This document shows, piece by piece, positions 14,795 through 61,850 of a stretch of DNA of 64,000 nucleotides. Made by a program: the position numbers and the translations under genes. The first letter of the stretch is position 1, and each line of letters opens with the position of its first letter. The DNA is taken from positions 68,076,001 through 68,140,000 of the forward strand of contig NC_086375.1 of the NCBI RefSeq assembly GCF_036588685.1. Reading direction: 5' to 3'. Below the pieces are notes generated by a model. That model did no database searches. It was not told the origin of the DNA and saw nothing but the letters and a program-made list of their open reading frames with translations. The DNA comes from Mytilus trossulus. Taxonomy: Eukaryota.

Positions 14795-16986
14795 TCAACA
14801 GTCTGTGTCATCGTCATCATGTCCGGACGTGGAAACTGACACACGAATGTTTTCTTTATTTTCAATTTTTACCGCTGGAATAATATTATTGTCACTGTCA
14901 GTATTGAAAATTACATCTGTTAAATTATTGGGGAGTTTGATGGAATCCGGAGACAAACCGAGACCATTGTCCTTCCCGTTGGCAGTATATGGAGGTGGTG
15001 GCGTTGAACTACGACTTGATGATTCTGTCAAAGAATGTAATGACTGCAGTGATTCAGAATTGTCCGACAAATTTGCTAAATTTTCTCTTGCTCGAAAGAA
15101 ATTTGATTTTTTCATTCCTTTTTGTTCACTTTCATCTTCATTGATACTATCATTTGATGAAATGATATCTTCATTTATACTGGAATTAATGGTATCGCTA
15201 TCATCAATAACATTATGGTCTCGCCAATCTTTAACTGAATCATCCTGTGGAATATCAGAAAATGATCCTGACCTAACTAACCTTTTACCTGACCAATCTA
15301 ATGAATTGTCAGTAGAATCTTTCGTCACATTTCCTGTGAAAGAACCTGTTCTTGTCATTTGCAATGTATTTTCATACTGTTCTAAATTTCCAATTTTATC
15401 AAAACAAGACATTGTCCTCAAAACAGATGATGATTTTGAATCAACAGTAACTGTTCTCACTGATCCAGTAGTATAATCATCCCTCACTTCAAAAGCTATT
15501 CCCCTTTTTTGTGAATCCTTTTCTTGTTTTGATTTTTGGCTCATTTGAGTTTCTATATCATTTAATTCATTCATAGATATATCGTAGGACATACCACTGA
15601 TTGATTCTTTTGTATTCCTGCTAGGGTATGGTGTAGAAAACAAACTAGGGTTTGATGATGTCACATTAAAGTCAACTTCTGAGGTATTTTGTAATTTTGA
15701 TTCATTTTTTTCATCGCCAGAGCTTGAAAATGATGAACTGCTATTGGATGCTTTTATTACTGTATCATTACATACATCTGATCCTATACTTGAATTTTCA
15801 CCATTTTCGGTTGGGGAACCTTTAAATGCTATCAGATTTGATAATAACTGACCAGAAGAATCTTTCTTTGAATGCTCTGGAGTAATAAGTTCCTCATCAA
15901 CAATAGGTCTATTATCAGGAGTTGACGGTCTCAGAGTACTTTCCATATCTGATAAGCTGTAATCCACAAGTGTAAGACTACCGATATCAGGTGAGGACCT
16001 TGAGGTATCAGATTTTATAGTAATGTCCACATCACTGAATTCAATTTTGTCACTCAAGACTGAAGTATTTCTATCCTTAATTGCAGGTGTGATAATTTCC
16101 TCTGATACCTCATCTATATATACATAGGACTTTGGTTGTGATTCTGATAACTGTACGTCTGATTCGGTGAACACTTCCTGTACTTCAATATCTGGTGACT
16201 GTAATGAACTAACTCTTGGACTGATAGAAATGTCACTGGACGATACACTGCTACCACTAGACCGATTCTTTTTCCTCCTTTCTGGTTTGGTTGGAGCAGA
16301 TTTTGATTCTACAACAACTGTATCCAAGTCTAAAGAACCTACTGATTTAGGAGTTTCAGTGAAAGAAGTTTCAGCAGATGAAACAACAACTTTACTATTA
16401 TTTGAGTCATCATTTGGATCTTCATAACTTAGTCTCAACATATCTAGCTTATCTTGTTCATTCAGTTTATCAAACAAGTTTGCAGCAAAAGCTGTTGCAT
16501 TTGACGTGTCATGTTTTTCATTTCCGTCCACCATATCTACAGTGACTGATGGGATATTAGTTGGTTCCCTCTCTACTGTCACTACTGTTTCTTTGAAGAC
16601 CTCCTCACCATTTGTTAACTTTAAATCATTCTTACTTCCATTTTCTTGAATTGTCGGGAAAGCTTCCCCTTTACCAGAGAAAGATGGTGCCGCTGATGAC
16701 CTTTGATGATTTTCCTTCTTTTTTTCTGGCCTCATTTCACTAAAGCTCCTTTGAGGCATTAATGTAGAATCTTTCCTTATTTTCTTTAACGTATCCATTG
16801 ACTGACTTCTGTACAGAGGATGACTGAGAGTAGACGGAGACTCGCTGACACGACGGTCTTTACGTACAAGTTTCTCTTTTTGTAATGTGACTCTGACAGG
16901 GTAGGGTGAGGCATAACTAAGAATGGTAAGTGCATCTTCATACACCATGTTCTCAAAGGAAATGGTTACACTCAAAATACGATCCC
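14795..16986 (-). CDS. Gene 2 large terminal exon: PDZ C-terminal half plus about 690 aa acidic Ser-rich tail
   Basis: Lies within the 752-aa ORF 14795..17053; tttttcag acceptor at 16987-16989; ends HDDDDTDC*. Confidence 0.92.
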
Positions 16987-19900
16987 CTGAAAAATAAATT
17001 GTATACAAAATTAGAAATTTTATACACAAAGGAAAGAGACTCATTGAATGCAATGTTGCATGAATAACTTGATGTATATATGCTGAATTATTTCTCTATT
17101 TACAAATTATTTCCTTTGCTTTGTTTGTTTTCCTGTTAGTTAAGACAAATATGTTTATGTATCTTCTACCATCTAGGTGGTCTTGTAGAAGCCTGCATGC
17201 CTTAATAACAAGATAGTTGATGATTGGTTTGATCCCTAACCTGGTCCAACAAAAGACTTAAAACTTGGTATATGATGCTTTTTAACTAAGTATGCAACAT
17301 AAAGAATTGAGAGCCAAGACTGTTTAGCTAATTGTTAGAATAATGTGTCTTGGCAATGTAGGATGTCTTTTTGCAGACTGTTATCTTGTGAACTAACACA
17401 TTAAAATCCAAGTAAGCATTTTGCTGTTGCCTTACCAGACTCAAATTTAACACTCATAAGAAAAAAATATTAACATCATGCAGTATGGTACATTTGGATA
17501 AAGAACATAAAAATACAAAGAAGTACTGTGGATCTGTATGTGCTTATTTTAGTGTGTTTCTTAATACATCAACTAACTTTTTATCTCTTACATTTTTTTT
17601 TTTTATACTATGTAGATAACATTTGGAAAAAAATAAAACAAAATAATTAATTTCATATTCCATATCTTTCTGATAGATTTGCTCATGTAACATCAAGAGA
17701 CATACCAACTTTAAATTGTCCTGATTCTACAGCTGGTCCCCTGTTGTGAACCTGACTGACAAATATACCATCTCTCATGCTACCAGCTATATTAAATCCA
17801 AGACCTATGAAATCCTGACTCTGCAGCCATACACTGCTAACCTCTGGGTCCTGAAAATAGAAACAATACTATCTTGACCTTTTATTCTAAAATTTAGATT
17901 TTTGATGAAAACATATCTTTTCTGCATGGCCTTGTTTATCTGTGGTACCTGAAAGTATGATGATTCCATCTAGATTTATAACAAGAATGTGTCCCTAGTA
18001 CATGGAGGTATTGATTTGATACCTATAGAATTATATAGAAATGATTTACTTTTAAATGTTTTACATAATTTATTTAATAAGTGTTTTAAGGTGGTAGACC
18101 TAGGTTAAGGGTAATAACTCTTAAAATCATCAGTACGTTTGTGTCAGCCATTTTCATAAACATGTTCCAAGCTTCTAGGATACATAGATTATTTTCAATC
18201 TGTTTCAGGTAAATGCTTAAAATACATCAATAAAACTTGACTATTACAAACGCATCACTGAATTAAAGAGTTATCTCCCTGGACCAAGGTCTACCCCCTT
18301 AAATTTGGGAAAAATCCCCTTCATGTGGAGAAAAGGGATAATAACACCTATACCTAAGTGTTCTACAACAGACACTCGTGATCCTTTTTCATATCGGGGC
18401 ATTACATTGTCACCATGTAGCTATAAATTATTTTGTAGCATTTTAAATAATAGAATAGTATCTTGGTTAGAAACTAAAAATATTTTATACGATGAGCAAA
18501 ACGGATTTCGGGGGGGTAGAAGTACTATTGACCATTTGAGTACGCTAACATCGATTATTGAAACCAGAAAATTACGAAAATTATCTACGTTTACAGTGTC
18601 AGTAGATTTTAAAAAGGCATATGACACAGTTAATAGAAATTTATTGTTTAATGATCTTAATGATCTTGGTATAAGTAAACATTTTTTGTGTGTTATTAAA
18701 GCTATTAATTCTCAATTTGAATGTGCTATTAAATTAAATGGGCATATGACTGAATGGTTTAGTGTAAATTCAGGCCTAAAACAAGGCTGTGTTTTGTCGC
18801 CAATTTTATTCAATATTTTTATAAACAGCTTAGTTACAAATATTAAAGCATTAGATATTGGTATTGATATTGATGGTGAAAAAGTTGGCATTTTGTTATA
18901 TGCAGACGACATTGTACTGATTGCAGAGAATGAAAGCGATTTGCAATTACTCTTAGATGTTTTAAATATATGGTGTAAAAATAAGTTATTAAATGTTAAT
19001 CACGAGAAAACTAAAATTGTACACTTTAGAAATCCTTCTGTACAGCAGACAACAACAGTGTTTTTATTTAATGATAAGCAGATATGTATTGTACAAAGCT
19101 ATCAATATCTGGGTTTACTATTAACTGAATTTTTAAATTATGATGTAATGGCTAAAGCTGTAGCCAAATCAGCGAACAGGGCATTAAGTTTGATTATTGT
19201 AAAGAGTAAGGCCCATGGAGGTTTCCAGTACAGTACATTTAATAAATTATTTGATAGCCTGGTCTGGCCAGTAATAAGTTATGGTGCAGCCATTTGGGGC
19301 ACCAGAGATTTTTCATGTATAAATGCTGTCCAGAACAGAGCTATCTGGTCTTTTATGGGTGTGGGTAAATATACCCCAAACGATGCAATTCAAGGGGATA
19401 TGGGCTGGAGACCTCCAAGTGTTAAGCAGTGGACTTGTGTTTTTCGACACTGGGCTAGATGTAACATAATGTGCACAGATAGATTAAATTATAGAATTTT
19501 TAAATGGTGTTATAGAAATGCTCTTAATAAGAGAAGAAATTGGTGTTTTAGGATTATGTCTAAGTTTAAAGAATGTAATTTAGATTTGTATACTGATTTA
19601 AATAATGTACTGTGTAAACAAAATATTATGCAGATAGAAGAATTTTTACTTGATAAGTATATAGAAAATTTGCAAAATAGAATATTAACACAAGATGTTG
19701 GTAAAAAATTGCGGACTTATAAATTGTTTAAAGACAGTTATGGTAGTGAATTATATTTATCTAAAACATTATCTTATAGATATAGAAGTGCTTTTGCTAA
19801 ATTTAGATGCGGAGTAGTTCCGTTGAGAATTGAAACAGGGTGGAATGAAAATAAAAATGTAGACGAAAGAGTGTGTTTTATGTGTTTTATGTTTAATGAT

Positions 19901-22900
19901 AACATAGAAGACGAAAAACATGTAATACTATCATGTCCTTCATATGCACATTTGAGCTTTTGTTTATATAGCGAAGCTATGAAATATAATGTAGATTTTG
20001 ATGATTTGTCTGATGATGATAAATTTGTTTATTTATTTAAAAACATTAATTGTTATGATATGGTTGCCAAAACCTGTTTTGATATTTTAAGTAGAAGAAA
20101 TACCTTTTTATATTCTTAAAATGAAATGATTTTAATAATCGTATGTATTTTAACTAGTTTTATATAGAAATGGTTTTATAGTCTCTCATAATTCTTAATA
20201 GAATGGTACTTGTAATTTATATTTGTGTATTGTCTGTTTTATATTGTGTATATACTCTGTATGTACTGTATATTTATGTATTGCAAGTAGTGAGACTTTA
20301 ATAAAATATTGAATCTGAATCTGAATCTGGATGCCCAATCTGCACTATCATTTTCTATGTTCAGTGGACCGTGAAAATGAGGTAAAAACTCTAATTTGGC
20401 ATTAAAATTAGAAATATCATATCATAGGCAACATGTGTACTAAGTTTCAAGTTGATTGAACTTCAACTTCATCAAAAACTACCTGGACCAAAAACTTTAA
20501 CCTGAAGTGTGACAGATGGACAAATGAAAGTACAAACGAACAAACGGATGAATGAACGAAGGAACAAATGAACAGATGCACAGACCAAAAAACATAATGC
20601 CCATTAAAAGGGCATAAAAAGCATTTCATTGGCTTAAATTTCTAAATGTTTACCCCAACCAGTTAAACTATAACAAACTACTCTGATTTTTATAATCTAA
20701 TAGAACATTCAACAGCCTTCTCTATTCTACAAACAAGCAGGATACACTGCATAATGAATGAATTGGGTTTGCTGACAAATTTTCTTAAAGAAGCCATTCT
20801 TGGGAAGCCAAAGCAAGCAGATTTCTGAAACACATACCATCTGTCTCTTATCTTTGAACTTGCATTTTTTCTGTGAATAAAATATTTTTAATAAAAAAGA
20901 ACATGTTTTCCCTCTGAAGCAACAAATCTGTACATAGCTTGCCTTTTATTCCTTTATGAGAATAAATCTCATATTACAATCAAATTATCAAAAGTCAGTA
21001 TTCATTCCTAAACCTAAACACTAAGTATCTATTTAACAAACAGAGTATATTCAATTGTGACATACAGAGGAAAATATTGACAGTTGTCACCTAGGTTCTA
21101 CATTTATCAAATATGTATGAAATCAAATCGTTCATTAATTTTGAAGGCTTTCCTACTTTATTATTAGTGTTTACCCTATTTAAATTGTGAAGGACCTTTC
21201 AATACTGATAAAATTGAAGAGGTCTCCATTTATAGATGATATGTTATCAATGATTTCTTGTCTTTTTAGTAGGTAGTTGGAATTCCTGTGTGTGAATAAT
21301 CCTCTTTAAAAATTGGCCTACTGTTTGAAGTAGGTATTTAATTTGATATTTAAATAAAAGGGACATTATTCATATTGTCATATTTCATTCAAAAGATGGT
21401 TTATTCAGTAAAAGTGAACAGTGGAAATTGTAACAATAAATAGTTAGGCTGGTCCTTCAACTACTAAGGTTTAATCTAAATTTACTGCTATGCTATGCAT
21501 TAAAATCAGAATCTCTTAGCAAAATATCTATAGGTTCATTCAAGTATTAACAAATCTAGAATTACCAATATTTTCCTGAATACACTATGTTGCTAGATCT
21601 CTCAAAGGTAAACATGAGGCCTGAAAAATACTGTTATCAAGATCACTTACCACCTGGTAAAATTTTTAGGTCAGACCTGGTCTTTAAAGATCAGTAATAC
21701 TCCAAAAAATTATGTTAAGGATAATTGAATAATTTCAATGTTAGCAAAGAAAACATTTTAACTATGATCATTATGAATACAGTGATCTTAAAAGGGAGAT
21801 AACCAAAACTGATATTTGTTCCAATATATTGTAGATATCCTATAGGTATCTAAAATATTATACTAAGGCTTTTTCAATGTTACAGTCAGTACTAAAAGGT
21901 TCTACTCTGTAAACAGAACCTTAATAGTATGTTAATTAACACAAATACCATGCAAAAGGATCTGAGCTCAAAGAAAATCCTACAGTTGATTCCATGTATT
22001 ATATTTGTCAAAAACATCTCTTAGTATGCAATAGCTGTTTTATATAAATGGTCATGTATTTTTTTACCTTTTAAGTCTATAAAAATATATAAATTTCTAT
22101 AATGACCTCATAAATTAAATGTGAATTATGTTTGTTTGTTTGCATCATACGTATATATAATGACACATACTGTAGAGAGGAAGGTGTAAACAAGCTAAAT
22201 GATAAATATTGACTTAGAAACCTAATTTGTCCTGATCTATTTAATTTTTATTTGAAAATTACATAATGAGTCAATCTAACACATGAAAAACTTATATACA
22301 AATTAACTACAAGTTTATTTATTCTTTTTAAAGTCCATTGTTAACAACACTAAGAATGAGGGAATTATAATGGAAAATCTACATTTATGTACCAGCTTTA
22401 TAGGAATTACATCGTTTGAATTGCATTTTCCGTCTTTTTAAGCACTTTTTTCAATTGTCACTAACATACTTCAAAAATGCTCATCCGGATACAAAAGGCA
22501 TCAATTTAAACTGAAATATATATCCACCCTTCCTTTAAGAAAAAATATTTACATAATCAATGTAAGATCTACCTGAAAGAAGACCTTTTATGTCTGTTTA
22601 TCCTCTCTACAAAGAAAGTTGTTTTGTCTGCTTTACATATACGGTACACATATTTTTCAATACTGAAAACAGATCTGTGCATGCTTGCTTTTAGCAAGTT
22701 ATGTGTGGTGACCAGTCATGCTTTTTCATAGATTTAGCCAAAAGAAATAAGAATGAAAATGCTAATGTTAGTTATGATTAAAAGCAAATAACATGTGAAA
22801 ATTAGAAATTTGGACTGTCATTGTACTGTTTAAATCTTGTTTATTCTTAATTTTCAAACCAACTAGCAGAAACTTTTGCTAACTAGAATAAAATAATTTT

Positions 22901-28900: not shown

Positions 28901-31900
28901 TTGAAAGTGGTCTATTGACATACTGTAAAAGCATATATTTTTGGTTGCAGTTTCAATTTACCATTTTCCCAAAAGAAATTGTAACCTTCAAAAAATATTA
29001 CTTTCACATACATGTACATGCAATAAATCCATAAAAAGTTAATTCCAATGAAATCAAATTTAGAAACGATAACACTAAAATTTAATCTAATGTTTCTTCA
29101 TAATATCCGATACCCCAAATTTTTTTTCCATCATTTTACATTTTAGGCAGAAATATCATAGATAATTTCCAAAATTGCAAGAGCTCTAATGCCAAAATCT
29201 ATGTTTGTTATGAATATAAATAAAAAAGCTATCCATGTAAAATTTGAAGCTGACATAATAATTAGTTAAATCAGTTCTTAATTTCATCAGGAGGGAATAG
29301 AAATGACTGATATTAGCCCTTTAATTTCAATGTTCATACACATGTATAACCAGAAGAAGTGTTACAATCAGTCAATGCCTTAGTAACCTTTGCTGGAAAG
29401 TTAGATTCCTGGAGCTAATTATTTTACTGAACTTTTTAAACTAATACTGATATAAAAAACATCAAATATGAATACTGAATTCATTCTCAATAAGGTCACA
29501 TCTACATAATTAGGTTATTTTTATTGGTTTTTAATATTTCATAAAAGTCATGTATTAATTATTAAATGGTTCTTTGAATGAAAAATACAAAAATTCAGCC
29601 ATACTTGTAAAATAAATTTTAATTAAATCTTATGAAAATCACTACATGTCTAAAAGGCCATACTATTTTGCAATAAATAAAGAAAAAATAAACCCTACAA
29701 ATCTTATTCTACAATGTGTGAGTCTTCCAAACAAATCTTATTCTACAATGTGTGAGTCTTCCAAACAAATCGTATTCTACAATGTGTGAGTCTTCCAAAC
29801 AAATCGTATTCTACAATGTGCAAGTCTTCCAAACAAATCGTATTCTACAATGTGTGAGTCTTCCAAACAAATCGTATTCTACAATGTGCAAGTCTTCCAA
29901 ACAAATCTTATTCTACAATGTGCAAGTCTTCCAAACAAATCTTATTCTACAATGTGTGAGTCTTCCAAACAAATCTTATTCTACAATGTGCAAGTCTTCC
30001 AAACAAATCTTATTCTACAATGTGCAAGTCTTCCAAACAAATCTTATTCTACAATGTGTGAGTCTTCCAAACAAATCTTATTCTACAATGTGCAAGTCTT
30101 CCAAACAAATCTTATTCTACAATGTGTGAGTCTTCCAAAAAAAAGTTTGTGTTGTCAGTCTTGGTATTGTGAATCCTAAAAATCAACCTGATCGAAAACA
30201 TAGAATGCAGGCAGAACTTCATGTACTGTACAAGAATTTGTTCCATTCTGGATGAAATCTGCCCAACTGTATTCAAGATGTTGCAGATGAATAAAATGTG
30301 ACACAGACAATGCAGAAGTTGATGATAAATGACACAATAAGTGGTCCTTATACAACACAAAAAAGCCTGGTGTCATGCCAAACCACTTAATATTTAATTG
30401 AAATGGAGGGATGTCGATTTTTTCTAGTTAAAAAAAGTAGAATCATTATGGTGAAATACATATTTATTAAAAAGGTATTATTCTCAGGATGTTAACTTAC
30501 CAAAACAAGATAATTTGTACTTAAATAATTAAACGTGATCAATGTACAATAGATCACTTAGTTAACTTATTCTTCTCAATCAAAACACGTTTTTCTTTCT
30601 TCTCAATCAAAATACCAAAAAAACAGAATCTTTTACAAGATTTTGTGACTTCGTAAACAAATATTTAACCTTTGATGATGTGTTTATAGCACAAAGCATT
30701 ACAGATTATGACAAATTTTCACTATGTGACCACACAAATCTAGACATTAATTGCAAATTCTTGACACCTTATAAATTATACATTACATCACCAAAGAAAA
30801 TAACAAATACTGAAAATGTATTCAAATCATATTAAAAGTTTCACTTGACCAAGTTTATAACACTTAACATGCTAATGGGATAAACGCACTCTGACCTTGA
30901 GTTTCTAAATATATAACAAGTTACTTTATGTTCTGTTCATTTTCAGAACAAGAAAAAGAAATTGTCATAAAATTATTTTTATTTAAAATGATTTTAATAT
31001 ATGAAATAAAAAATTGCCCCAATTTTTATTAGGTTAGGCTTTGATGGACTTCGATGTGGAAATTTCTGGAATTTTTCCTCAAACCATTAAAAGTATGTCA
31101 ATTTGTCTGTAAAACTCTAACCTAATAGCCAATGATGATTAAAAATCAATCATAATTCAAGATCATTTTAGTTTATGGTGTACTTTAGAGGAAATTTATC
31201 ATCCCTTAATGCAAATTTGGAGTAAAGCATAAGATAAAAGAAAGAAATGTCATTTAACACTGATAATGAACATCTGTATCCTAAAATTTAAAACTTTTTT
31301 TCACTTCTAGAAATGAATATCAATAAAAAAATATATATATTAATATTATGTTGATAGTCCTTTATATAAAGCTTTATTACAATTTACATAAATTTAACAT
31401 TAACCAAAATAACTAAACATTGACCAATGAACCATGAAAATGAGGTCAAGGTCAGATAAACAATGCTAGACAAACATGTACAGCTAACAATTCTTCCATA
31501 CAACAAATATAGTTGTTAAATACTTATTGCTTAATAGTTTAAGAAAAACAGATCAAAACACAAAAACTTAATACTGAACAATGAACCTTGAAAATGAGGT
31601 CAAGGTCAAATAAAACCTGTGCAACTGACATAAAGATGATAAAATATTTCCATACACCAAATAAAGTTGACCTATGGCATAAAGTATTAGATAAAAAGAT
31701 CAAAACTCAAAAACATAACTAACTACTGAACCATGAAAATAAGATCAAGGTCAAATGACATCAGCCAGCTAAACATGTACACCTTACAATCATTCCATAC
31801 AACAAACATAGTAGACCTATTGCATAAAGTATGACATGTACACCTAACAGTCCATCTAACAGTCCTTCCAGACACCGAAAATATTCTAGACCTATTGCTT

Positions 31901-34900
31901 ATAGTATCCAAGATATGGACTTGACCACCAAAACTTAACCTTGTTCACTGATCCATGGAATGATATCCAGGTCAATTTAAATCTGTCTGACAGACATGAG
32001 GACCTTCCAAGGTAAGCACATACCAAATATGGTTATCCTCTTAGTTATAATAAGAGAGAATTTAACATTACAAAAAATCTTAACATTTTTTTCAAGTGGT
32101 CACTGAACCATACAAATGAAGTCAAAGACATTGAACATGTGAATGACGGAAACTTCATAACATGAGGCATCTATATACAAAGTATGAAGCATCCAGGTCT
32201 ACTACCCTTCTAAAATATAAAACTTTTAAAAAGTTAGCTAATGCCACTGCCACTGCTGCCAGATCACCATTCCTATGTCAGTCTTTCTGCAACTTTTGTG
32301 GCTTGACAACTAGATCAACAAAGGACATATTCCCCAACTTTGTTATTTGGTGGTTGCAATATATGATACTCCAATGTTTAAAATGTCCTTTATTCTTATT
32401 ATCAAAAATGGACATTTAGGTTGGCTAAACTTGGTTTGTAAAATCACCAAATACTGTTTTCAAACTTAAACTAAAGGCATCATTAACTTTCAGGTTCATT
32501 CCCTTCAGCAAAGTGGCTCATGTTAGTTTGTGTATAATGGACAACAATTGCAATAACTCACACTGAGTACTTATTAGTATCAAGCTACAGGAATCTTTAG
32601 AAATGGTCCATACACAAGTTTAATTACCTTTATGTTGCTAGTTTTTTTGTGTGTAAAGACTTCTACAAATTCAATATGTTAACTTTCAAACTTTAGATAT
32701 ACTCAAAAGTATATAAAATAGTTTAAAGGACCTGCTTTAGTCCTGTCTTAAACTTTTAAACCATTTATATAAAGGTTGCTATAAAGATTTTTTTATAATC
32801 TGAATAAAAGACTTTTGGGTTGATTATTTATGAGGCAGCAACCAACAAACAAACAGAAAACCAAGTTTATAACTGTAACATATTTCTAATCTTATAATTG
32901 ATGTTTTAGCACAAATTATTAAAGCAGTTATTGAAAAAATATTGAATGCTACCATTAAGCTTACTAGTTACCTAATTAAATTACCATTTCTTGTTACTTT
33001 AAATGGATGATTAGTGTTTTAAAGAATAGTTTAAATCCACAGTAGTTATTATGAATGGCGTCAAGCGATACTACTAGGCGAGAACACTGTATCGTTTTAC
33101 TGTCAGAATCTATACAAGATTGCATGTTGACATCACATTCACTGGAAGATGAGCAACCTAATACAAGCCTAAAGAAATGTTTTAATAGTCAAATATTGAC
33201 CTTTAAAAGATTTGTTTACATGCCATACATGCCTACCCTATACACCCAAGAATGCTGTGACCTAGTTTTTAATTAATCAAAACTATATAAGTTTTCAATG
33301 CCTCTTTTTAATGCTGTCCGTAAATAAAACTTAACACTCCCAATTCAAAAGCAAAAATAATACTGGGTGAACCATTTAAAAGGCTAAATTAATCTTTAAA
33401 AAGATCTACTCGACATATGAGAGACTAGACACAGTCTCTACACTCCAATATGAGGCTTTAAACAGATAAAGAATTAAAAACTGAGGTCTAGCTGTGCCTC
33501 AAATTTAGATGCCAAGCAAAACGGCTTTTCAAAAAGAAAAAAAATATACAAGTACAAATTAAATCATTTAAAAATATATATAGTTCCCTCAGCACCTAAT
33601 AAATGTAAAGTCCCCCTGGTTTTTGATGGGGTTCAGGTTGCCCAATCTTTAGTTTTCTGAGAAGTGCATTATCATACCCTATGTAAACAATTAATTTCAG
33701 TTCATTTTTGTACATTTCAGTATAAACATTCACTCTTTAAAAGTTTTAAACAAAATAAAGGCTGTTAGAATTTTATTTTTAGCTTGTTTTTTAAATGAAA
33801 AATATAATATATACATATATAAGCATTAACTTTTTAGATAAAACATGAAACTAATCAGGAATAACACTGACAACTTATATAAGCCATATATTTATATAAA
33901 ATGTTGACATTTATATTCACTATAATCCTCTTACAAAATAATAACAAGAGATAGAGTTCTTTATAATCTCTATATCATTTATCTCATCAAGTATCTAGGA
34001 ACTTAAATTCTTACAGTATCTTTAATAACATAAGAACAAAAGAACTGTGTCAAAATAACACCTTTAAAGAAATATGAGTATACAACTTCATAGGGCTCAT
34101 TGATATGGAACATTTGGCTATCACAGACTGCAGAAGTTTACACTTCGCAAACAATAGATATATTCATGATATGTCACAAGGACACTTCATAAACAAAATA
34201 ATTCAAATTAAGTCAAGGGTATGATCTACTTTTTACTCATAAAGAATGACATTCAGTAGACAGACCAGACCAGATATTGTTACAATGTAATATTTAGTGT
34301 TTAACAGTGTTACAATGTAACATTTAGTGTTTAACAGTGTTACAATGTAACATTTAGTGTTTAACAGTGTTACAATGTAACATTTAGTGTTAAACAGTGT
34401 TACAATGTAACATTTACCATTTAGTGTTTAAAAGTGTTACAATGTAATATTTAGTGTTTAAAAGTGTTACAATGTAACATTATATAAATAACACATAGCT
34501 GAGAGGGTGATAGAGCAGATTGTTAGATAACATTTTATTTTGACAGTCAAATTATAAAATCTGAGAAAGAAGGTAGAACCATTCATTGTCTCGAAATATC
34601 AATCGGGTATTTGTACTCGGCTCGAAACAGGTAGAAATGCTCGGCACAGCCTCGATTTCTACCTGTTTCTAAGCCTCGTACAAATAACATTGATATTTCG
34701 GGACAATGTAAGGTTATTCTATATTTAACAGTGTTACAATGCATTAGTGTTTTCAGTCTCCAAAAAATCCTTACTTTAGTTACAAATGTTGCCACCAAAA
34801 ATATATGTGATCAGTGATAACAAATTCATACTACACTTCTTCATTTGTATCATATATGGCAAAGCCAATGTTATAGGGTAAATTTCAGATACATTAAAGT

Positions 34901-37900
34901 GCCTTTTAAGAATGACCAAAGGAATATTATCACTTAATACAATATTTAAAAAGAAGATGTGGTATGATTACCAATGAGTCAACTCTCAATAGAGGTTGAA
35001 CTAAAATAACAAGAAAAGAGCAGTCAATTTAATACAGCAAAATATTTTTTCTGGTTTTTTTAAGGCACTGTCAGGTTTGTTTGACCTGCAAGGTTTTGTG
35101 CCTATTTTGAAATGTACCAAGAACCCATAACTTTTGAATAGCAAAAGTGAAAATCATTTATTTGAAATTGACCTAATACCAATATATCAAAGTTTGCAAA
35201 GCATTGGTTGGTCAAACTGAGACAACATATTACAGTGCAATTTTAAAATTTATCTAGGACCATTACTCTCAAACAGTATAAGTCAAAATCGTCAAAATTA
35301 AATTTCACCTGCATTTTGTTATCACTAACACAATATCAAAATTTGAAAAAAAAGCATTGTTTGAAGGGTTCATAAGTTATTGCAGGGAAACAACTAAAGT
35401 GCCGTTTTCCAATCTATAAAGGAACATATCTCCTTTTTTGCATAATTTTAAATTATTAATTGACCAGTGAATGTTTCTGTAATCAGACTGGAGTACAAGC
35501 TAGCTAATGCCATATTTGTTATCATTTATTTAACAAGGTCACATGAATATTCATTACCTTTTTCTTGGCAGGTGATGTGTATTCCTGACATTGTATGTAG
35601 CCACCAACACCTACAAAATAGTAATGATAAACATGTTTATAGTTGTGTCATGACTTTAACAATCAGTAATAAGAGATATAGTATAATAAACAGCTTTGTC
35701 TTTCCTTTCCTGCCATTAACAGGTTTTTATTAATACTGACATTAAGTGGCTGGTGCAATGCCTTATAACAGACATAACAAATTGTTTGTTGTTTTTTAGG
35801 CCTTAAAAAGCCTAAACATGCAATAAATTAAGTGCCAACAAGGGCATACGGCCACAACTTTTATACTTATTCATTTCCTGCATTTGGTTTCTCCTTGAGG
35901 ATCAACCTTCACCAATAAATTATGTGGGTGGTGTTTTCTTGCAATTATATTATTTATGTACCTAATCTTTGTATGTTCATGATTGAGAAACTAGTAAATA
36001 TATTAAATCTGAGTTACTGAATCATCCAATGTGCATCAATAATTCAATACTTGAAACATGAAGAAAAAATCAATTTTCCGCAATTTTATTCAACATGTGA
36101 AATATATTTAGTGGGCAGATAATTTCCACAGGTTTATAGGTTTTAATAACACAAATCTACTCCTACATAGTATTTCTGATATCTTTGCTTTATGGAGGGA
36201 TAAAAGTAAATGTTAATCATTTCTCTATATAATAGAAAAAACAAAGAATATGGGGTTGGCAACTTGCCATCAATTAGACAAAATTAGTGCACTCATCCAA
36301 ATAGGAAAGGAACAGTGCTTTTACCGATGTTCTTCATCTTAAAGTTACAGTGAGGCATTGACACAGGGCAAATAGAACTCTCACCACACTGCAAATTAAT
36401 AAAGATGGGCTCTAGCACCAGTTTAAGTGGCATTCTGTGCTCTAAATGTTTGCCTCAATTAAATGATGTCCAAAGTATTGTAAGCCATTAGATATTTTCC
36501 AAATATAATTTCAGGATTTATCCTATATTTACAGAATCATGCATATTGCCTAGCCTGAGTTGCTAACTTTTAATTTAATGTATCTATTGCGATCCTTTGG
36601 AACTCTTAACATTATTTTTTTGAAAAAAATTCAGCGAGTTTTCATTTCTTTTTTTTAAACTTGTAATTAGGTGATGAAATTCACATGTAATGAACAAATA
36701 CATGCAATACATCAGAAGTTTGGTGAAGTGATAACTTGTATATCAATGATACAAGGTCAGGACAGCAATAATCATGCATGATTATTTAGGTATGTAGGTC
36801 GACTCAATCTTCCTGACAGCAAAATCTTATATATGTTGTCAACTTCATTAAATATTAAAATAAATGTTAAATATATGCAGTGCTATATCACATTCAGAAT
36901 ATTTCTAATTCTTCACAAGGATAAAATATGTTACATGTTTATAACAATTCCTTGGATGTTTGTTGTTTGAATAAGATGTGGACACAGAAGTATGTCTCAC
37001 CTAACTGCACTAAAGACTGCTTAAAAGGTTGTTGGTCTTTCCATTTGTATAAAATGTACTGTATAAATCTAGAGGTATACTAATATTACTGCAACCTCAA
37101 TAAGTGCAGGTTTGGTAAGATTTGTAAAGCTTGCTTTAAGTGCTGCTTACAACTGACGAACAATTGTAATACTCTATATCAATAGATCTTCTGAAGAAGG
37201 TTTGATATGTAAATGCAAAAGCAAGTAATTCTTGAAACTAGCACAACCCTATATGGTACAAGGTTAAACTTTCTTTCTGAACCTGATAACACCCTTAAAA
37301 AGAAACCCCCCATCTATCTACTACCACCTAAGGATGGACTGCCTATGCACCTTTATTGGTTTAGCACACCACATCAATGTTTAAAATATTTGTAAACGCA
37401 ATGTTAAAGACAACGTGACCCAACAAAATGTCATTATCCTCAACAGCTGGTGTAGGTTTACAACCTAGTCATATCTCATATGTCAAACTTACTATTGATA
37501 TTTTACTGTAAAAATTGTTATGACATAATTTTAAACCAGTGTAAAATGTCTTGCATTGAGAACGGGAAAAATCATTTCTTGTTTATATCGATAATACATA
37601 AAGAATTTGGTTTTGATATTAAATGTTGACAGACTTATTCTATGTTACCTTGAGAAATGACAAGTTTTAGCAATGCAAAAAACTGCCAACAATTCTTTAA
37701 TCTTATGATTTTTAAAGGATAATTTAAAATCAAGCAAAAATAGGAAAGCATTGTTGTATGACAATAGTAAAAGGAAAAATATTTGGTACATTCTTTAATT
37801 CCTTTAAAAAAAAATAATTAAGCATTATGAAATTCCATCATATTATGTAATGCATAGCAAAATTGTTTAATGTTTCTTCCCACAAACCACAACCATAATT

Positions 37901-46900: not shown

Positions 46901-49900
46901 AGTACACTGATAAACAGGCTTCCCAATCAAGAATTGAGAAGGAGAAACTCGATCATTTATTTGAGAAGTGGGCTAAGTTCCAATCTGGACAGATAACAAG
47001 AGCAAAATGTGTTCACTCATTGGGCTTCAAATATCAAGCTGAAACTGACCTGTAATTTTGATGACAGTACTTGATTTTATTTCTTAAGAATGTTTACTTG
47101 TAGCTGTACATGAACTTTTATACACATATCTAAAATGTGCTATGAAATGAATGTGCTATGAAATGAATGTGCTATAATAGATTTTTAAACTTTTAACCAT
47201 AAAGAATGAGGAGGGAAGTCATAGATATAAAAAAAAAAGCGCAAATGTCCTATGTAAAAAGCGCAAATGTCCATTTTTAAAAAGCGCAAATGTCCTATGT
47301 TTTGAAGCGCAAGTGTCCACAAAAAAAAGCGCAAATGTCCTATGAAAAAGCGCAAACGTCCCGTGCCGATTTTTATACTCTAATTCTGATCCATGGTTCC
47401 TTCATTTTTTTCATCAATTATGAAGGGTGAATATTGAGTGCTAATGGTATATGATTACCAAAAAATGTCTGCATCAACAGATTTGACAGGCTGTTCTAAC
47501 TTATTGTATTACAAAATTAACACTATTCAGTAATTTTTAAATGCCCAGATTGTGACAATCCTATGCTAACAATTTTTTTTCTTCTTGTATTTCTTCATTT
47601 TAATAGTTGACAGTAGTATATTTTTATGGACAATTTTTATGCCATGACAATTTAAGCCTCGTAACGAAAAATACTCTACCTTACTACAAAATGTAAAACC
47701 AATTTCTATTTTTTTCTTCAGAAAAAGTACTCATTATTTATTAGGGGCCAGCTGAAGCCCGCCTCTGGATTTGGGATTTTCTCACTGTATTGAAGAAACA
47801 ATAGTCCCCTTATGCTCTTTGGTCACTTTGTCTCATTGACACCTTCTCGATTTCATTCTAAGCGAACGTTGCTCTACTCTTACAATGTAAGTAAAATTTA
47901 AATATATACATGTATAACAAATCAATTTCATCTTATCCGTATCTTTTTCTTAGATTTTCAAGTATTACATCTCAGTTGACTCTTAATACTGTAATGCATG
48001 TGACATTGCCCTTCATACAAAACAGGAGATATGTAAGTAGGGTGTATATAAATTTACCTTCTTCTGCTAAACTTATATCTGCAGGAATGTCACTGTCATT
48101 GAAACCTGGATTGGTATGTCCTCCATCAGGTGATGCACTATCTCTCTCTTCTACTAATCTGTTCTTTTTTATTGGTGTAGACTGGGGCTTTAAAATATCT
48201 ATAATAACATTGATATATTTTAAATTAAAATTAGTTCATAAATAATACACCATAAATTAATGATCAGGTGTCCATTTCACAAAATAGAACAATTCAGTAT
48301 ACTTACAACTAATCTCAGTCATAAGTTTTTTGGTGAAATGGACTCAAGGTATCTGTATATAGCAGTAAATGTATGCTTAATAAGAAAATGCAATGAACAT
48401 AATGCTGCATTTCTATCATCACTGTCATGTTAATTTCTGCTACAGTAATACAACCAATGGATATACATTCCGAGTATTTGTATCTTCATGGAAAAATTGT
48501 TGATACAAAAAAAGAAGCTTTAATACACATTATTGGGAATCCTAGCTGACCAGTCTTTTGTCTTAGTCTTACTCTGATGTACTCACTCATAATCATTGCT
48601 TGGCAATGAGACAATAAACACCAAAATAAGAAATCTATGGATAATTTTGCATGTTTAATTTTAAAGCAAAAAAATAAGTCTGTGTTTCAAATTGCAATCA
48701 AAAAATTTGTTTTTAGCCAAAAATACCAGATACAATGATTGAGAAATAGTAATATTGTAAAATTTATCAATTACAATGTATTCTATTAAGCCAAAAAGAA
48801 AGATGTGATGACAAGTAAAGTTGTTTGTCCTAGAAATAATATTACTATATTAAAATTCACAAGAGAAACAACAAGGTTAATTAAAGGCCTGCAGGCAAAA
48901 TCATACTTCCACAATACCTTGTAATTTAATTAAAGTGTTGACAATTTTAGATGTAAAAGCGGAAGCTTGAGACAATATGTTTTAATTGGAGAAATAAATT
49001 GCCTGCATAGTGTCAAATGTTTTGTATGCTTAATAGTAAAGCTCTCTGTGTAGCCAACAGTATAGAATTTTTTTACAAGCAAAAAAAAATTGCTTCAAAA
49101 CAGAGCTACAATGTACAAGTTGTTACATCCTTATTATTGGTTGCATGTACAAAAAGCTGATACAAGCAAAAATCATATCAATAATGGATAAGACCAAAAC
49201 TGAGTCAGGAATATAAAAATGCAACATACTCTGATATACTACACGATTCTTTATTTCTAGAACTGATATCATTTATCTAACAATTATTTTAAAGCAGATG
49301 CTATACTGGGACAAAGTTCATAAAGAAGATATGATCAATAAATTTATGTACCAATGTAGTGTACTATACATGTACCATATTTGCATGCATTTATAGTTTT
49401 CTTTTATCTAAAAGTATAATTTTTCATATAATTTGACTACTTATTGGTTAGGGACCAATACATAGGCTATTAATAAAACCATTTATACCCAATTATACCT
49501 TTATTTACACCATAATGCCATAGCTGTAATTGAATATCCTTCATTTATTATATTTATCTTAAATTTTTAAGGTCAATTCCTTTACAATCTGAAAGGGCAA
49601 CTCTTTCCAAACTACAGAAAGAAATTATTTTGCAAAAGCCATAATGTAACTCAAATAATCTACCATCAGGCTTACATGTATATCATACACTATTTTACCA
49701 ATCCAAAATGAGTTGTATTACTCTGCAAATATGAAAATTCTTTAAAAAGAATAGGATATAAATTATAAAACGGTTAGCTTTAATTTTTAAACCATATTAT
49801 AGCAAGGTTGATTTCAAAATAATAATTATGTGAAGTGCAATATTTATTTACAAGAAAAATATGTGCCTTCCTCCCTCTCAAATGAATAAATCTACCATAC

Positions 49901-52900: not shown

Positions 52901-54052
52901 TCTTTCGTTAAAAAACCCCGAATGGTAAGCTACATGCTTTATTAATTTAGGTCAAATTTTTTTGTACGACGTTTTAAGACGCATTGATATAAATTGTCCG
53001 GCCTTATTCGTGAAACAATATGACAGTAAAACAGGACCCATCCATCAGAAGTCACCAAACAACATTTGATGTGTCCAACACGACAGTGAAGGCCTCGTTG
53101 ATGCCATAATCCTCCTTATTTATTGCAATATTAGATAACACACAGACATGCATACATGTATACATGTACATTTAGTAGCATTGTCGGTACATGATAGGTC
53201 ATTTCAATTAAAATAAATAATGTGTGTTGGAATGGTCTTGAAATAATTACTGGTTGCTGTTATGAAACTGGCAAACCTCATTGTCTTCGTATACAACTAG
53301 AAAGGTGACAAAAATAAAGTGTATTCAAATTTCAAAGGGAACCCAAACTGATTTTTTTTTACAATTTGGTACAATCGTTTAAATATTGCGAATAAGATAG
53401 AATTAATTGTCTTCATATTTATTTAATTTGTTTACGTCGATACTATTGAGGAAAAAAGATACAATCAAAAGTTGAAACGGCCTTCCTTTTTTTTCTATTT
53501 TGAAATAACAACAAAATGATATTCATTCAAGAACGAGATTTAGAGCGCGTCGCTTGAAAAATACCAACCTGTATTCAGAATAGAAGTTATGGATATTATC
53601 GGTAATTATATATATATATAATAACGAAAATTGAGATCATTTTGCAGACTTGTTCGTCAGGTGTCAAGTATTTATCATGCAGTGTGTTGTAAAAAATCTA
53701 TGTATTTTTTTTTCTTTTTAAAAAGATCCGATACATGGTCAAGAGGGTATAAAAACCAGATTATGAAATATTATTTTCAAACTGGATTGTTTAGATGGGT
53801 TTTCATTAGTATCTTTTAACATCTCATGACACCACAGTTAATTATATTTTCTGAATAATAATTCTTACCTCTTCTCCTTTTCCACAGTATAAAGAAAATA
53901 ATTCCAAATATCAGTAAAACAACAGCTAGTGTACTAAAAACACTAGCCACAACTATAACAGCAACACTTGGTTGTCCACTACACTCCTGACACTGCACTA
54001 TTCCAAATAAAAGAATTACAACTAAAACGCATAAAATATTAAATCTCCACAT
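14795..54052 (-). CDS. Type I single-pass membrane protein with a cytoplasmic periaxin/AHNAK-family PDZ domain and long disordered tail; complement(join(14795..16986,17706..17850,28291..28419,39680..39708,48058..48198,53869..54052)), about 939 aa
   Basis: Six exons with canonical AG/GT sites whose phases chain (1,1,0,0,1) into a 2820-nt open frame. Signal peptide MWRFNILCVLVVILLFGIVQC; TM VAVIVVASVFSTLAVVLLIFGIIFFILW followed by KRRR; PDZ GLGFNIAGSMRDGIFVSQVHNRGPAVESGQFKVGDRILSVTISFENMVYEDALTILSYASPYPVRVTLQK. Confidence 0.8.
17706..17850 (-). CDS. Gene 2 exon: N-terminal half of PDZ domain (GLGF loop)
   Basis: DPEVSSVWLQSQDFIGLGFNIAGSMRDGIFVSQVHNRGPAVESGQFKVG; ttttcag acceptor and gtatgt donor. 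Confidence 0.92.
18007..20327 (+). mobile_element. 5'-truncated non-LTR retrotransposon (L2/RTEX-like) with RT ORF 18305..20119
   Basis: RT motifs YRGITL, QNGFR, DFKKAYD, GLKQGCVLSPILF, YADD, YLG; C-terminal LRIETG..C..C..EDEKH...C; AATAAA at 20300 and a (GAATCT)3 tail. Confidence 0.92.
18090..18298. mobile_element. 209-bp MITE with TTAA target-site duplication (Kolobok-like) inserted in the LINE ORF
   Basis: TTAA at 18086-18089 and 18299-18302; TIRs ggtggtagacctaggttaagggtaataactc and (reverse complement) gggggtagaccttggtccagggagataactc. Removing it restores ...LFNKCFNLGKIP... Confidence 0.88.
28291..28419 (-). CDS. Gene 2 exon (SPKSSIGEGPSHKPWSSLP...SFDDTFFGV)
   Basis: ttttccag acceptor (an alternative in-frame acceptor lies at 28440); GTG|gtaagt donor; phase 0 to 0. 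Confidence 0.8.
29698..30137. repeat. 34-bp minisatellite, about 13 copies
   Basis: Unit caaatc(t/g)tattctacaatgtg(tg/ca)agtcttccaaa. Confidence 0.95.
31330..32310 (+). mobile_element. Degenerate non-autonomous element with internal core repeats (HINE-like)
   Basis: Recurring gaaccatgaaaatgaggtcaaggtca at about 31430, 31583, 31728 and 32105; (gccact)n near the 3' end. Confidence 0.6.
34277..34481. repeat. 30-bp minisatellite with palindromic core tgttacaatgtaaca, about 7 copies
   Basis: Unit gtgttacaatgtaacatttagtgtttaaca. Confidence 0.9.
34584..34708. mobile_element. Long imperfect hairpin (Crypton-like element core)
   Basis: About 54-bp inverted arms around the loop gctcggcacagcctcg. Confidence 0.6.
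38530..38750 (+). mobile_element. Solo 3'-terminal fragment of the Penelope-like family
   Basis: Matches 60040-60250 (acatgtggagcaggat.tg.ttac...ggagcac...tctttagttttct...catttttagccatg). Confidence 0.75.
39680..39708 (-). CDS. Gene 2 putative 29-nt micro-exon (ENVKPTPEKN)
   Basis: Pyrimidine tract with catcag acceptor; gtatgt donor. It supplies exactly the phase 1-to-0 bridge needed between the flanking exons. Confidence 0.6.
43196..43644. mobile_element. MITE with TIRs, containing a 48-bp retroposed insert
   Basis: Ends tggtcctagaccacaatt and aattgtggtcttggacca. Confidence 0.7.
46305..47368 (+). mobile_element. Internally deleted Mutator-like (MULE) DNA transposon
   Basis: TIRs (g/c)ggcac.ggacgtttgcgcttttt; 8-bp TSD atttttat; subterminal ggacatttgcgctt repeats; broken coding remnants WRCTVKNCNARIQT...H (FLYWCH-like) and FADYL..W...RTTNGPESFHAHYN. 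Confidence 0.88.
48058..48198 (-). CDS. Gene 2 exon 2 (juxtamembrane; DILKPQSTPIKKNRL...HTNPGFND...AEE)
   Basis: ttattatag acceptor; AAG|gtaaat donor; phase 1 to 1; open frame. Confidence 0.78.
51268..51535 (-). mobile_element. 3' end of a 5'-truncated LINE
   Basis: Minus strand encodes KLIQLLSVHNVKELNNLGKFLFNIEK, followed by a UTR, AATAAA and a (TAT)n tail. Confidence 0.6.
51543..51598. repeat. Three 18-bp repeats (taaagtgcga.gg), probable DNA-transposon terminus
   Basis: ctaaagtgcgatggtact-like unit repeated three times, ending in ggaacag. Confidence 0.55.
53869..54052 (-). CDS. Gene 2 first coding exon: signal peptide, short ectodomain and TM helix
   Basis: ATG at 54052; two hydrophobic segments; KRRR stop-transfer; GAG|gtaaga donor. 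Confidence 0.82.
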
Positions 54053-56460: not shown

Positions 56461-58375
56461 CCTTTTGCCAGGAAAAGACTTCAGGACACAATTTCGAGTA
56501 AAATTCTGATTAGGAATTTGTATCACCCTTACAGTCCTTTCAGGATCAGAACATTTGTTCCGAAGTTAAGTGAGGTTATCCGACAGAAAACCCGGAGTGC
56601 TGAAAACGGCGGTTTTCGGGTCATACAGCGAGCTCTAACACTTTTTATGATAAGAAATCGGGGATAGGAAGATACCCAAAACCAAATGAATGTCACTTTG
56701 ACAGTAAAACTTACTGTTGCAAAAGACGAAAAGATACTAAGGGAGCAATCAAACACAATACCGGGTACGTCAGGCAACATGCACACAACACAATGACCAA
56801 ACGAATGAAAAATGAAAAAAAAACCCAGACTAAAACAGCCTACAAAAAATCCGTGACACAGATATTGAGCAATATGGACCCCACCAAAACATTGAAGGAA
56901 ATAAGATAATCCAAAAGGATCAGTATGTGTTTTTCTATTATATTTTTCTCTCATCAAAATGAGAGTTGACGGTTATTTGTTCATATTTCTTATTGTGACA
57001 AAGGAGAAAAATCACAGTACAATACACAACCCCTCTTAAAAAAATAAATGAAATTGAATGAAACTTGAAGTGATTGATTGGTATCTATAGCTATTTCTAT
57101 TAGTAAGCGCTTGAACAAAATAAAGTTTGGCATCAGCTGATCTCCAGAATCAATGTCTCTATAGATCTATTCTAACCAGAATCAGGACGATTTTAAAGAT
57201 ACGCCCAACTAATGGCACACAAGATATTACATGGACTATTTCAGACTGTATACATTGATTGACTGTTGCTTGCATTTATCTAGTGAAAAATGCACATCGA
57301 AGACGAAAACAAAGCAACAACGACCAGCATATACAAAGACCAATTTGGATTGCCAACAGCAAATACGGTATGTTCGATATGCCTTTCAACGGTGAGCCTA
57401 TTTGACACATCAGAGATGCACGGGTTTTTAACGTGCATGCACTGTGCACGGATCATAGGATTAAATGCGATCATTTCTACAGGACGTGACTGCGCATTCA
57501 TACATCCTGAACAGCCAATCAGACATCCCACTCTAGCGATGGATTACTGCAGGACGGGAGAAGTTAAAGGATGATTTGTTTTTATTTCACCTTTGGGGTC
57601 TGGGTTGTATGAAATCGTTATATATAAAAGTATTACATCGTGCTGTAAGAGTCCTTATTATTAAACATCTATACCTACTTTTTGCCATTTTATAGCTGGC
57701 TAAACCTCTCACTTGTATGACAGTCGCATCAAATTCCAATATATTGACAACGATGTGTGAACAAAACAAACAAACATAATAGGTACAAATTTCATAAAAA
57801 GGGGTACAGCAGTCAACATTGTGTTATCCTTTTAATCACTATAAAACAAACAAATATATGTACAGAGCCACGTCATATGCATCAAGAAACACAAAAATGC
57901 ATATAGTCAAAGGACATTAGCAAAAATGAAAGACAAGAATACAAAAAATATTAGAACAATAACATAATGAGGGATAAATAAGTACCGAGTCACGTCTAAT
58001 GGGTATCATAAAAACAGACTTAACATTCATAAAGGCAAATAAAAGAATAATATAACACGTTATTAAGACGATGAACAACGTCAGTAACCAGAACCTATAC
58101 TTCAAGACCATCGTGTACTATATGTGAAGTTGTTACGGAGTATTATCAGCAAGGTCTTGATAACTTCCGATAAACTTTTTTATGAAAAGGACATACCTCT
58201 GGTTCATCAACTTTATGCTCAGACACAACTAGTTAAAACATATTTAAATATATTTATGAGACTCTTGTGGATTTGTACTCAAAATTCAATTTTGTACGGA
58301 CAATGAGTTCAGTTTAACAAAATTTGTAACATACTACAAATTTAAAATTTTGTCATACAAAATTGACTTTTGTTA

Positions 58376-61451: not shown

Positions 61452-61850
61452 ATACCACTACACAAGTAAACAGCTTCTACGTATTTCTGAAGACCCTCTT
61501 TCACGTTGGACAGAATTTTAGTCAATCTAATGGACAATTCTTTAGTCGTACATGCAGATGAGCCGGCAATGTAACGTTGTTTGCACGTTATTTTGTGAAG
61601 CATGGGTATCAAAAACAAACAATGTAAGTCCTCCGATTTGTTGTTTAATTTTATGTTCATTAAAGCCATGAAGGATTTATGCTTCGCCAAAATCTCATCC
61701 TTGTTAAATGGTTTGTTTTTTGTATGTGGCATTACCTGAGTGCTCAATTATCCCTAATTCGTTTACAAGACAATCGTACGGAGAAATATACTAATACAAT
61801 ATTATTCGAAGCTTTGTCCGCATGATACTTATTACATGATATACATTTCA
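61452..61850 (-). mobile_element. Second, diverged Penelope/Naiad RT fragment
   Basis: KDEILAKHKSF...LIPMLHK..KQRYIAGSSACTTKELS..LTKILS.VKEGLQKY parallels the 58750-58990 translation. Confidence 0.8.

Follow-up and report, generated by a model that had tools for sequence, protein, structure and literature searches.

Periaxin has been described as a scaffold protein that links DRP2/dystroglycan to beta-4 integrin as an extended dimer, its PDZ domain forming an intertwined dimer (PMC6465933 and PMC7072810). The PDZ domain is N-terminal, and behind it come a basic stretch and then a long disordered tail (PMC7072810). AHNAK and AHNAK2 of vertebrates, according to PMC10682155, consist of an N-terminal PDZ domain, repeats and a C-terminal domain, carry no transmembrane (TM) segment and are encoded by small 5' exons and one large last exon. 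Here we analyse a 64,000-nt stretch of Mytilus trossulus DNA (contig NC_086375.1, forward-strand positions 68,076,001 to 68,140,000; hereafter the window, in whose numbering all positions are given). It contains the gene LOC134712218, whose product has a PDZ domain of the periaxin type followed, as in periaxin, by a basic stretch and a long disordered tail. In contrast to periaxin, which reaches the membrane via its partners, the mussel protein has a signal peptide, a Cys-bearing ectodomain, a TM segment and an NPxF motif in front of the PDZ domain; it also keeps the GLGF loop and has no repeats. Since a signal peptide and a TM segment precede the PDZ domain, the mussel protein is a variant of the periaxin/AHNAK family and not a plain member of it.

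We consider it probable, though well short of certain, that this protein belongs to a protostome-wide family of scaffolds that span the membrane once, share ancestry with periaxin, AHNAK and AHNAK2, anchor themselves, dimerise and cluster membrane proteins. Gene structure, domain order, conservation and PDZ kinship are documented below; the mode of action (anchoring, dimerising and clustering) is inferred. In the literature searched, mostly outside subscription journals, we found no description of a transmembrane invertebrate relative of periaxin or AHNAK, nor any of its TM architecture, its motifs or the predicted dimer; a fly or worm orthologue could be published under another name. The available parts of PMC4805545 (on CG31772) and of the PMC3484668 supplement (all but one file, file 7) show no link to periaxin or AHNAK, and we claim no fly gene. 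AHNAK-like or periaxin-like transcripts of sea cucumber and shrimps appear as passing mentions in the texts available, without characterisation and not tied to this family. Homology is implicit in automatic names such as periaxin-like and AHNAK-like, which limits the surprise.

Gene structure

The 947-aa protein and one stop codon are encoded by a 2844-nt join of six minus-strand exons (54052 to 14795), a model that we rebuilt from splice-site scans:

53869..54052, minus strand: coding exon 1, 184 nt, residues 1-61; signal peptide, ectodomain, TM segment and basic stop-transfer sequence; orthologue matches with E 1e-10 to 1e-11
48058..48198, minus strand: coding exon 2, 141 nt, residues 62-108; disordered linker; from splice scan, translation and tblastn
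35558..35610, minus strand: coding exon 3, 53 nt, residues 109-126; weak tblastn matches of P0008 and Lingula P0069
28291..28419, minus strand: coding exon 4, 129 nt, residues 127-169; conserved W-x-S-L-P and R-x-x-S-x-G-S-L-D upstream of the PDZ domain
17706..17850, minus strand: coding exon 5, 145 nt, residues 170-217; N-terminal half of the PDZ domain with the GLGF loop; Pfam PF00595 above cutoff
14795..16986, minus strand: coding exon 6, the large last exon, 2192 nt; C-terminal half of the PDZ domain, disordered Ser/Asp/Glu-rich tail and stop codon

All five introns are GT-AG, with phases 1,1,0,0,1, and the joined translation agrees letter for letter with protein P0001, named at its source as Mytilus trossulus LOC134712218. 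When six orthologues were compared with the window by tblastn, the exons were recovered colinearly and each of the six was matched by at least one bivalve orthologue. P0007 matches exons 1, 2, 4, 5 and 6 (E 1.5e-129 to 6.9e-7), as does the limpet protein P0046, and P0008 matches exons 1 (E 1.4e-10), 3, 4, 5 and 6, of which exon 3 (E 0.017) and exon 4 (E 0.086) are weak matches. The N-terminal design of the M. trossulus protein recurs in P0002 of M. coruscus. Pfam gave nothing above cutoff for exon 1 alone or exon 6 alone. The phase-consistent six-exon model of the initial annotation, which joined a TM exon about 36 kb upstream to the PDZ exons, is thus borne out by the exact match to P0001 and by the colinear orthologue matches.

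The introns are large and contain repeats and a LINE-type element, and the M. trossulus splice junctions are taken from the database gene model and from orthologues, so that one could suspect a chimeric model in which the TM exon is part of another gene 36 kb away. We regard this as extremely unlikely. The TM segment is present in 26 of 26 Logan-only proteins with a whole PDZ domain (41 Logan-only proteins were examined), in the same order on single short contigs, and the order is also kept across phyla. As these contigs are 2.6-9.5 kb long and the gene is split by introns in genomes, they are presumably spliced transcripts. A sequencing-run search with exon 6 returned no RNA holder on record, which we used as evidence neither way.

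Distribution of the family

Three protein searches and one profile search yielded 268 proteins; they comprise 120 of the 326 matches in one search and 150 of the 783, without names, in the profile search, and one search spanned 2184-5000 aa. Named members belong to bivalves, gastropods, a chiton, the brachiopod Lingula, the annelid Owenia, Bugula and bdelloid rotifers. Among arthropods they belong to spiders, scorpions, ticks, horseshoe crabs, a sea spider, a millipede, insects, Daphnia and palaemonid prawns. No deuterostome, cnidarian or dipteran member is named among the matches listed. The order signal peptide, Cys, TM segment with S/T-x-x-x-T, NPxF, PDZ domain and tail recurs in molluscs, the brachiopod, the annelid, rotifers, chelicerates, insects and crustaceans, the annelid record being without a signal peptide.

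A TM segment lies ahead of the PDZ domain in 158 of the 206 whole-PDZ proteins, 152 of them detected by a TM profile, which is partly circular as it was built from 102 of the 152 matched proteins, and 6 more by hydropathy. With hydropathy alone, an earlier set gave a TM segment upstream of the PDZ domain in 102/130 whole-PDZ proteins. The TM plus PDZ architecture that had been suggested as worth seeking in lophotrochozoans and arthropods is found in both, and orthologues do not consistently lack the TM segment.

Chelicerates have several paralogues per species, for instance in horseshoe crabs (P0089, P0094, P0097, P0100, P0103, P0132, P0139, P0155), spiders and scorpions; the molluscs listed mostly have one copy per species. 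In P0040 of Tegillarca the second half of the PDZ domain is fused to an N-terminal part that is unrelated and that one source names calmodulin-lysine methyltransferase; this is probably a mis-joined gene model.

Membrane anchor

Exon 1 encodes two hydrophobic stretches (Kyte-Doolittle maxima 2.43 and 2.99) and then KRRR. The elements in front of the PDZ domain are as follows:

53990..54052, minus strand: predicted signal peptide, residues 1-21, from hydropathy, with the cleavage site from the rule and a matching orthologue site
53966..53989, minus strand: ectodomain Gln22-Ser29, with the Cys24 codon at 53981-53983; Cys position conserved in the family
53882..53965, minus strand: TM helix Val30-Trp57 with Ser37-x-x-x-Thr41, then KRRR; Kyte-Doolittle maximum 2.99; modelled helix 30-64
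48101..48118, minus strand: cytoplasmic x-x-N-P-x-F, residues 89-94, a putative PTB/FERM-type sorting signal

Cleavage before Gln22 is a prediction by the (-3,-1) rule that agrees with the corresponding site in orthologues, and it would leave about 8-11 extracellular residues, Cys24 among them. An AlphaFold2 model made with a 24-sequence alignment has helices at 2-19 and 30-64 and is confident in the TM and PDZ regions. The Cys stands 13-18 residues ahead of the TM Thr in 144 of the 152 TM-bearing proteins, the spacing being exactly 17 in 92 of them, and S/T-x-x-x-T occurs in the TM segment of 131/152. At single positions, counted in 102 TM-bearing proteins, Thr41 is kept in 95, Asn91 in all 102 and Phe94 in 98. 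Between the TM segment and the PDZ domain NPx[FY] is present in 114/152 and N-x-x-[FY] in 143/152. The TM Thr lies at a median distance of 113.5 residues from the PDZ domain in the 152 proteins, and the M. trossulus linker comprises about 110 disordered residues. Hydropathy and orthologue conservation, with the Cys kept in 144/152, agree with the signal peptide, tiny Cys-bearing ectodomain and single TM segment that had been proposed at the outset. The disulfide-linked dimer proposed along with them would be a putative role of this conserved Cys.

The LDL receptor and amnionless carry FxNPxY/FxNPxF sorting signals, and the corresponding [FY]-x-N-P-x-[FY] is found between the TM segment and the PDZ domain in 97/152 family proteins. 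The mussel protein differs from these receptors: its first motif position is His, it has no ligand-binding ectodomain, and adaptor binding is putative.

A membrane protein of this shape could also serve one particular partner. CD3-zeta, DAP12, KCNE and FXYD are accessory subunits that bind a different membrane protein, and the mussel protein might likewise be an accessory subunit of one receptor, channel or transporter, with Cys24 and the polar TM face binding the partner and NPxF and the PDZ domain trafficking or anchoring it. The tiny ectodomain, the near-constant spacing between the Cys and the TM Thr, the conserved NPxF and an N-terminal TM half conserved beyond the needs of a plain anchor speak for such a role. 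However, the TM segment has no charged residue, and the predicted intertwined PDZ dimer and tails of up to 4,400 aa point to a general scaffold. We consider an accessory subunit rather unlikely, though worth keeping in mind.

PDZ domain

Pfam recognises the domain (PF00595) with 27.1 bits against a cutoff of 23.2, and AlphaFold2 places the PDZ fold at residues 173-253 (domain about 170-254). The GLGF loop is present in 189/206 whole-PDZ proteins. In a sequence search of the PDB with 59 matches, AHNAK2 (4cn0) came first (E 1.2e-11) and periaxin (4cmz) second (E 1.4e-11), both about 40% identical by our own count; the best single-PDZ rival had E 6.6e-7. The profile search (33 PDB matches) placed AHNAK2 again at rank 1 and periaxin at rank 6. 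In this search 4cn0 and 4cmz alone align through the end of the PDZ domain (to profile positions 249 and 244), and the alignments of the other 31 matches end at 214-215 in 29 cases and at 230 in two. The alignment with periaxin is ungapped through the C-terminal half. This includes the spacer from G-D-x-I to E-D-A, which has 11 residues and no Asn-Gly turn in 199/206 proteins and is one residue shorter than that of DLG4 PDZ3, where a gap is needed. AHNAK2 and periaxin being the best PDB matches, the assignment to a periaxin/AHNAK-type PDZ domain in the initial annotation stands. On sequence grounds the domain is a mosaic, with a DLG-like first half carrying GLGF and a periaxin/AHNAK2-like C-terminal half:

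16877..16986, minus strand: periaxin/AHNAK2-like PDZ half, residues 218-254; the predicted dimer is centred on strand 220-228

Periaxin introns presumably lie at the same Gly of the G-D motif and just before the PDZ domain, as in the mussel gene; an intron at the Gly could be widespread in PDZ genes.

When two copies of residues 162-285 were modelled together, the prediction was a large symmetric dimer, which scored 0.86 in three runs against 0.00 for the best of 3 controls. The predicted dimer has 295-377 contacts, at least 69% of them shared between runs, and pLDDT 71-75. Strand 220-228 pairs with itself and with residues 248-252 of the partner, and this predicted contact pattern fits a domain swap, that is, an intertwined homodimer as in periaxin and AHNAK2. 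In calibration the mark for a dimer was reached by 21/30 solved pairs and 0/23 single chains from microbes. For eukaryotes the corresponding numbers were 17/29 pairs (animals 7/16), 1/7 for pairs without an older solved relative, and 0/30 single chains. Residues 231-240 are the least confident PDZ stretch of the monomer model (mean pLDDT 58).

Disordered tail and giant crustacean members

The PDZ domain is followed by a Ser/Asp/Glu-rich tail of about 690 residues. The long disordered tail foreseen earlier agrees with the AlphaFold2 model, in which pLDDT is below 50 for 729 of the 947 residues, with short helical islands at 380-404 and 689-705. The conserved motifs of this region are:

16799..16822, minus strand: post-PDZ motif HPLYRSQS, residues 273-280; His273 and Pro274 each in 101/102 proteins
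15245..15301, minus strand: basic tail motif of the R-x-x-S type, residues 780-798; nearly all columns at least 60% conserved in 39 lophotrochozoan-type sequences
14798..14809, minus strand: acidic C-terminus D-T-D-C; terminal Cys in 55 of the first 66 matches

In the same 39 sequences, conserved islands are located at about 384-408, 449-458, 685-692, 713-721 and 780-806. The acidic C-terminal motif with the terminal Cys is present in most bivalve and many gastropod members; the D-T-D-C end of the mussel protein could be a PDZ ligand. Ends of the T-x-V or S-E-A form, which resemble class I PDZ ligands, were noticed in the rotifer or rotifer-like P0115, P0116, P0117 and P0235 and in the unnamed P0066, P0068 and P0072. 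With such tails, family members may use their C-termini to bind PDZ domains, be it those of the family or others.

The tail also bears on the adaptor role that the initial annotation had proposed by analogy with LAT and TRAP. LAT, TRIM, SIT, CD3-zeta and DAP12 have a very short Cys-bearing ectodomain, one TM segment and a disordered cytoplasmic part, as does the mussel protein, but we found no homology to them and no conserved phosphotyrosine array, and the mussel protein has a folded PDZ domain. If it were a phosphotyrosine signalling adaptor, its TRAP-type gross anatomy and its 15 cytoplasmic tyrosines, with lophotrochozoan conservation at positions 276 and 685, would find an explanation. 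However, a Cys pair is missing from the cytoplasmic side of the membrane, inspection shows no conserved YxN or YxxL that recurs, and the conserved tail motifs are mostly Ser/basic. Moreover, NPxF ends in Phe in 98/102 proteins, so phosphorylation there is not possible. What remains of the proposal is the short ectodomain and the single TM segment; the conserved tyrosine motif set and the Cys pair are missing, and we give the signalling adaptor little credence.

Six crustacean members, three Daphnia-type and three prawn proteins, are 3,288-4,371 aa long and share the PDZ domain and the post-PDZ motif; in five of them the front is complete, with signal peptide, Cys, TM segment and NPxF. The initial annotation foresaw neither these giant orthologues with repeats of the AHNAK type nor the predicted intertwined PDZ dimer. 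Two repeat motifs, K-M/I/L-P-K/T/S-hydrophobic and K/R-G-P-x-hydrophobic, which we take to be of the AHNAK type, were counted in the tails. Daphnia-type tails contain 28-43 copies of the first motif as compared to at most 4 in 200 shuffles. Prawn tails have 2-4 copies of the first and 5-6 of the second, and Owenia shows traces of AHNAK-type repeat motifs. NCBI automatic naming calls the prawn proteins AHNAK-like, in agreement with these repeats. The palaemonid prawns (P0176-P0178) belong to a shrimp group with myelin-like sheaths. As giant TM-bearing orthologues occur in Daphnia as well, the presence of myelin cannot be read from size alone.

These crustacean proteins strengthen the likeness to AHNAK2 and AHNAK, which otherwise lies in the PDZ domain and in the small 5' exons and large last exon; the mollusc members differ in being about 900-1000 aa long and without repeats. 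They also matter for the question whether the likeness to periaxin and AHNAK is convergent or confined to a shuffled PDZ module, the anchored protein being an independent protostome invention. Such an origin would agree with a DLG-like N-terminal PDZ half with GLGF and with the lack of named deuterostomes among the matches listed. It would leave unexplained the common C-terminal PDZ signature with its common one-residue deletion, the AHNAK-type repeats in crustacean tails and the exon layout shared with AHNAK and AHNAK2 (PMC10682155). In addition, the nearest Atlas clusters of the Owenia orthologue are chordate AHNAK and periaxin (0.86-0.88), which we treat as a lead only. We judge convergence or shuffling to be improbable. 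As a further lead, residues 1-290 gave two arthropod-dominated PDZ clusters in the Atlas at 0.89.

Proposed function and origin

If the scaffold reading is correct, the signal peptide and the TM segment would place the protein in the membrane in type I orientation and leave almost none of it on the outside. The near lack of an extracellular part argues for an anchor and not for a ligand-binding receptor. Two PDZ domains would intertwine as a homodimer, and their GLGF pockets would stay free to grip the C-termini of channels, transporters and adhesion proteins. Cys24 and the Ser37/Thr41 helix face may tie the TM segments together. NPxF could recruit PTB- or FERM-type adaptors and thereby control endocytosis and recycling or provide a link to the cortex, and the long disordered tail would keep apart short conserved motifs at which partners from the cytoskeleton and from signalling dock. 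Membrane proteins would thereby be clustered into cortex-linked patches, a task comparable to that of periaxin through DRP2/dystroglycan and beta-4 integrin, but carried out without a borrowed membrane anchor.

A number of observations weigh against this reading. Its support consists of sequence comparison and predicted structure, and the roles given to Cys24, Ser37/Thr41 and NPxF come from conservation. The TM segment is absent from 48/206 whole-PDZ records, a signal-peptide-like stretch is detected by a crude test in only 99/152 TM-bearing proteins, and hymenopteran and some beetle records start at the ectodomain, without a signal peptide. As for the kinship, similarity to the vertebrate proteins lies within the PDZ domain, and Mytilus has 0 copies of either repeat motif. 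In the profile search four DLG-family PDZ chains score above periaxin. The monomer model folds as a canonical PDZ domain, and its 39 listed Foldseek matches comprise ordinary PDZ domains, with neither periaxin nor AHNAK2 among them. Our quick tree (51 chosen family rows, careful search unfinished, long branches flagged) consists of family rows without a vertebrate or outgroup PDZ, so that orthology with the vertebrate proteins is putative. Finally, the dimer score may merely echo the solved structures 4cmz and 4cn0, because only one of the seven calibration pairs without an older solved relative passed.

The 48 TM-less records look like isoforms or models without the first exon, since 20 of them keep the upstream NPxF and many begin within a few dozen residues of the PDZ domain. 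A separate TM-less paralogue was considered and rejected: the 13 rows labelled TM-less do not cluster in the quick 51-row tree, and most of the named ones adjoin TM-bearing kin. NCBI has TM-less isoform records for Saccostrea, Ostrea, Physella, Parasteatoda, Belonocnema, Linepithema and Macrobrachium, which may be real or partial models. In the M. trossulus protein, Met occurs before position 260 at 1, 194 and 231 only, and the open intron run-ins before exons 2-5 in the window contain no ATG. An intact TM-less PDZ protein would thus need an undiscovered coding first exon. TM-less isoforms from internal promoters, an idea raised initially, may have counterparts in the NCBI records of other species; the Mytilus window gives no support for them.

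Among the insect records without a signal peptide, Cys, TM and NPxF are kept in P0108, P0124, P0149 and other hymenopterans and in the beetles P0127, P0136 and P0147; other beetle and bug records have the signal peptide. Read from these sequences, the pattern suggests a switch from type I to type III membrane insertion. Absence of the signal peptide in these records makes Cys-TM-NPxF-PDZ the constant part of the family.

A broader reading, which we put forward tentatively and think possible without favouring it, takes the anchored form as the ancestral periaxin/AHNAK. Vertebrate periaxin, AHNAK and AHNAK2 would then have arisen from a TM-less isoform by loss of the signal-peptide/TM exon, the anchor being replaced by DRP2/dystroglycan, integrin and annexin links. 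In the anchored form the two pairing sites, one at the ectodomain Cys and the TM segment and the other in the intertwined PDZ domain, are separated by about 110 disordered residues. Each site could join a different neighbour, so that the protein would form a polymer or lattice within the membrane and organise patches linked to the cortex, perhaps in wrapping glia or in tight epithelia. The anchor may have been lost in vertebrates or, alternatively, gained in protostomes.

With this family, the Charcot-Marie-Tooth and myelin scaffold periaxin gains a deep invertebrate relative with a different strategy of membrane attachment, and the origin of periaxin and AHNAK can be put to the test with a rooted tree and with insect or Daphnia genetics. 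The intertwined PDZ dimer would extend beyond vertebrates, to a domain that keeps its GLGF pocket. To our knowledge integral-membrane PDZ scaffolds are rare, and a conserved one is added here to a short list.

Other features of the window

The window also contains candidate poly(A) signals, retroelement sequences and tandem arrays:

14375, 13694 and 11822, minus strand: AATAAA hexamers, candidate poly(A) signals in the 4 kb that follow the stop codon, the first of them at a distance of about 420 bases
18221-20119, plus strand: LINE-type element with a 632-aa open frame (Pfam RVT_1, E 1.6e-36), antisense in intron 4 and about 370 bases upstream of the PDZ-encoding exon 5
58260-59764 (plus strand) and 61346-61747 (minus strand): broken, mutually similar open frames, by eye retroelement pieces, with no Pfam match
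986-1305, 1957-2380, 10212-11614, 29697-30143, 34278-34481 and 60390-61341: tandem arrays with periods of 52, 71, 30, 34, 30 and 21 bases, respectively

The tandem arrays explain the repetitive spurious open reading frames at 10.8-11.6 kb, 29.7-30.2 kb and 61 kb.

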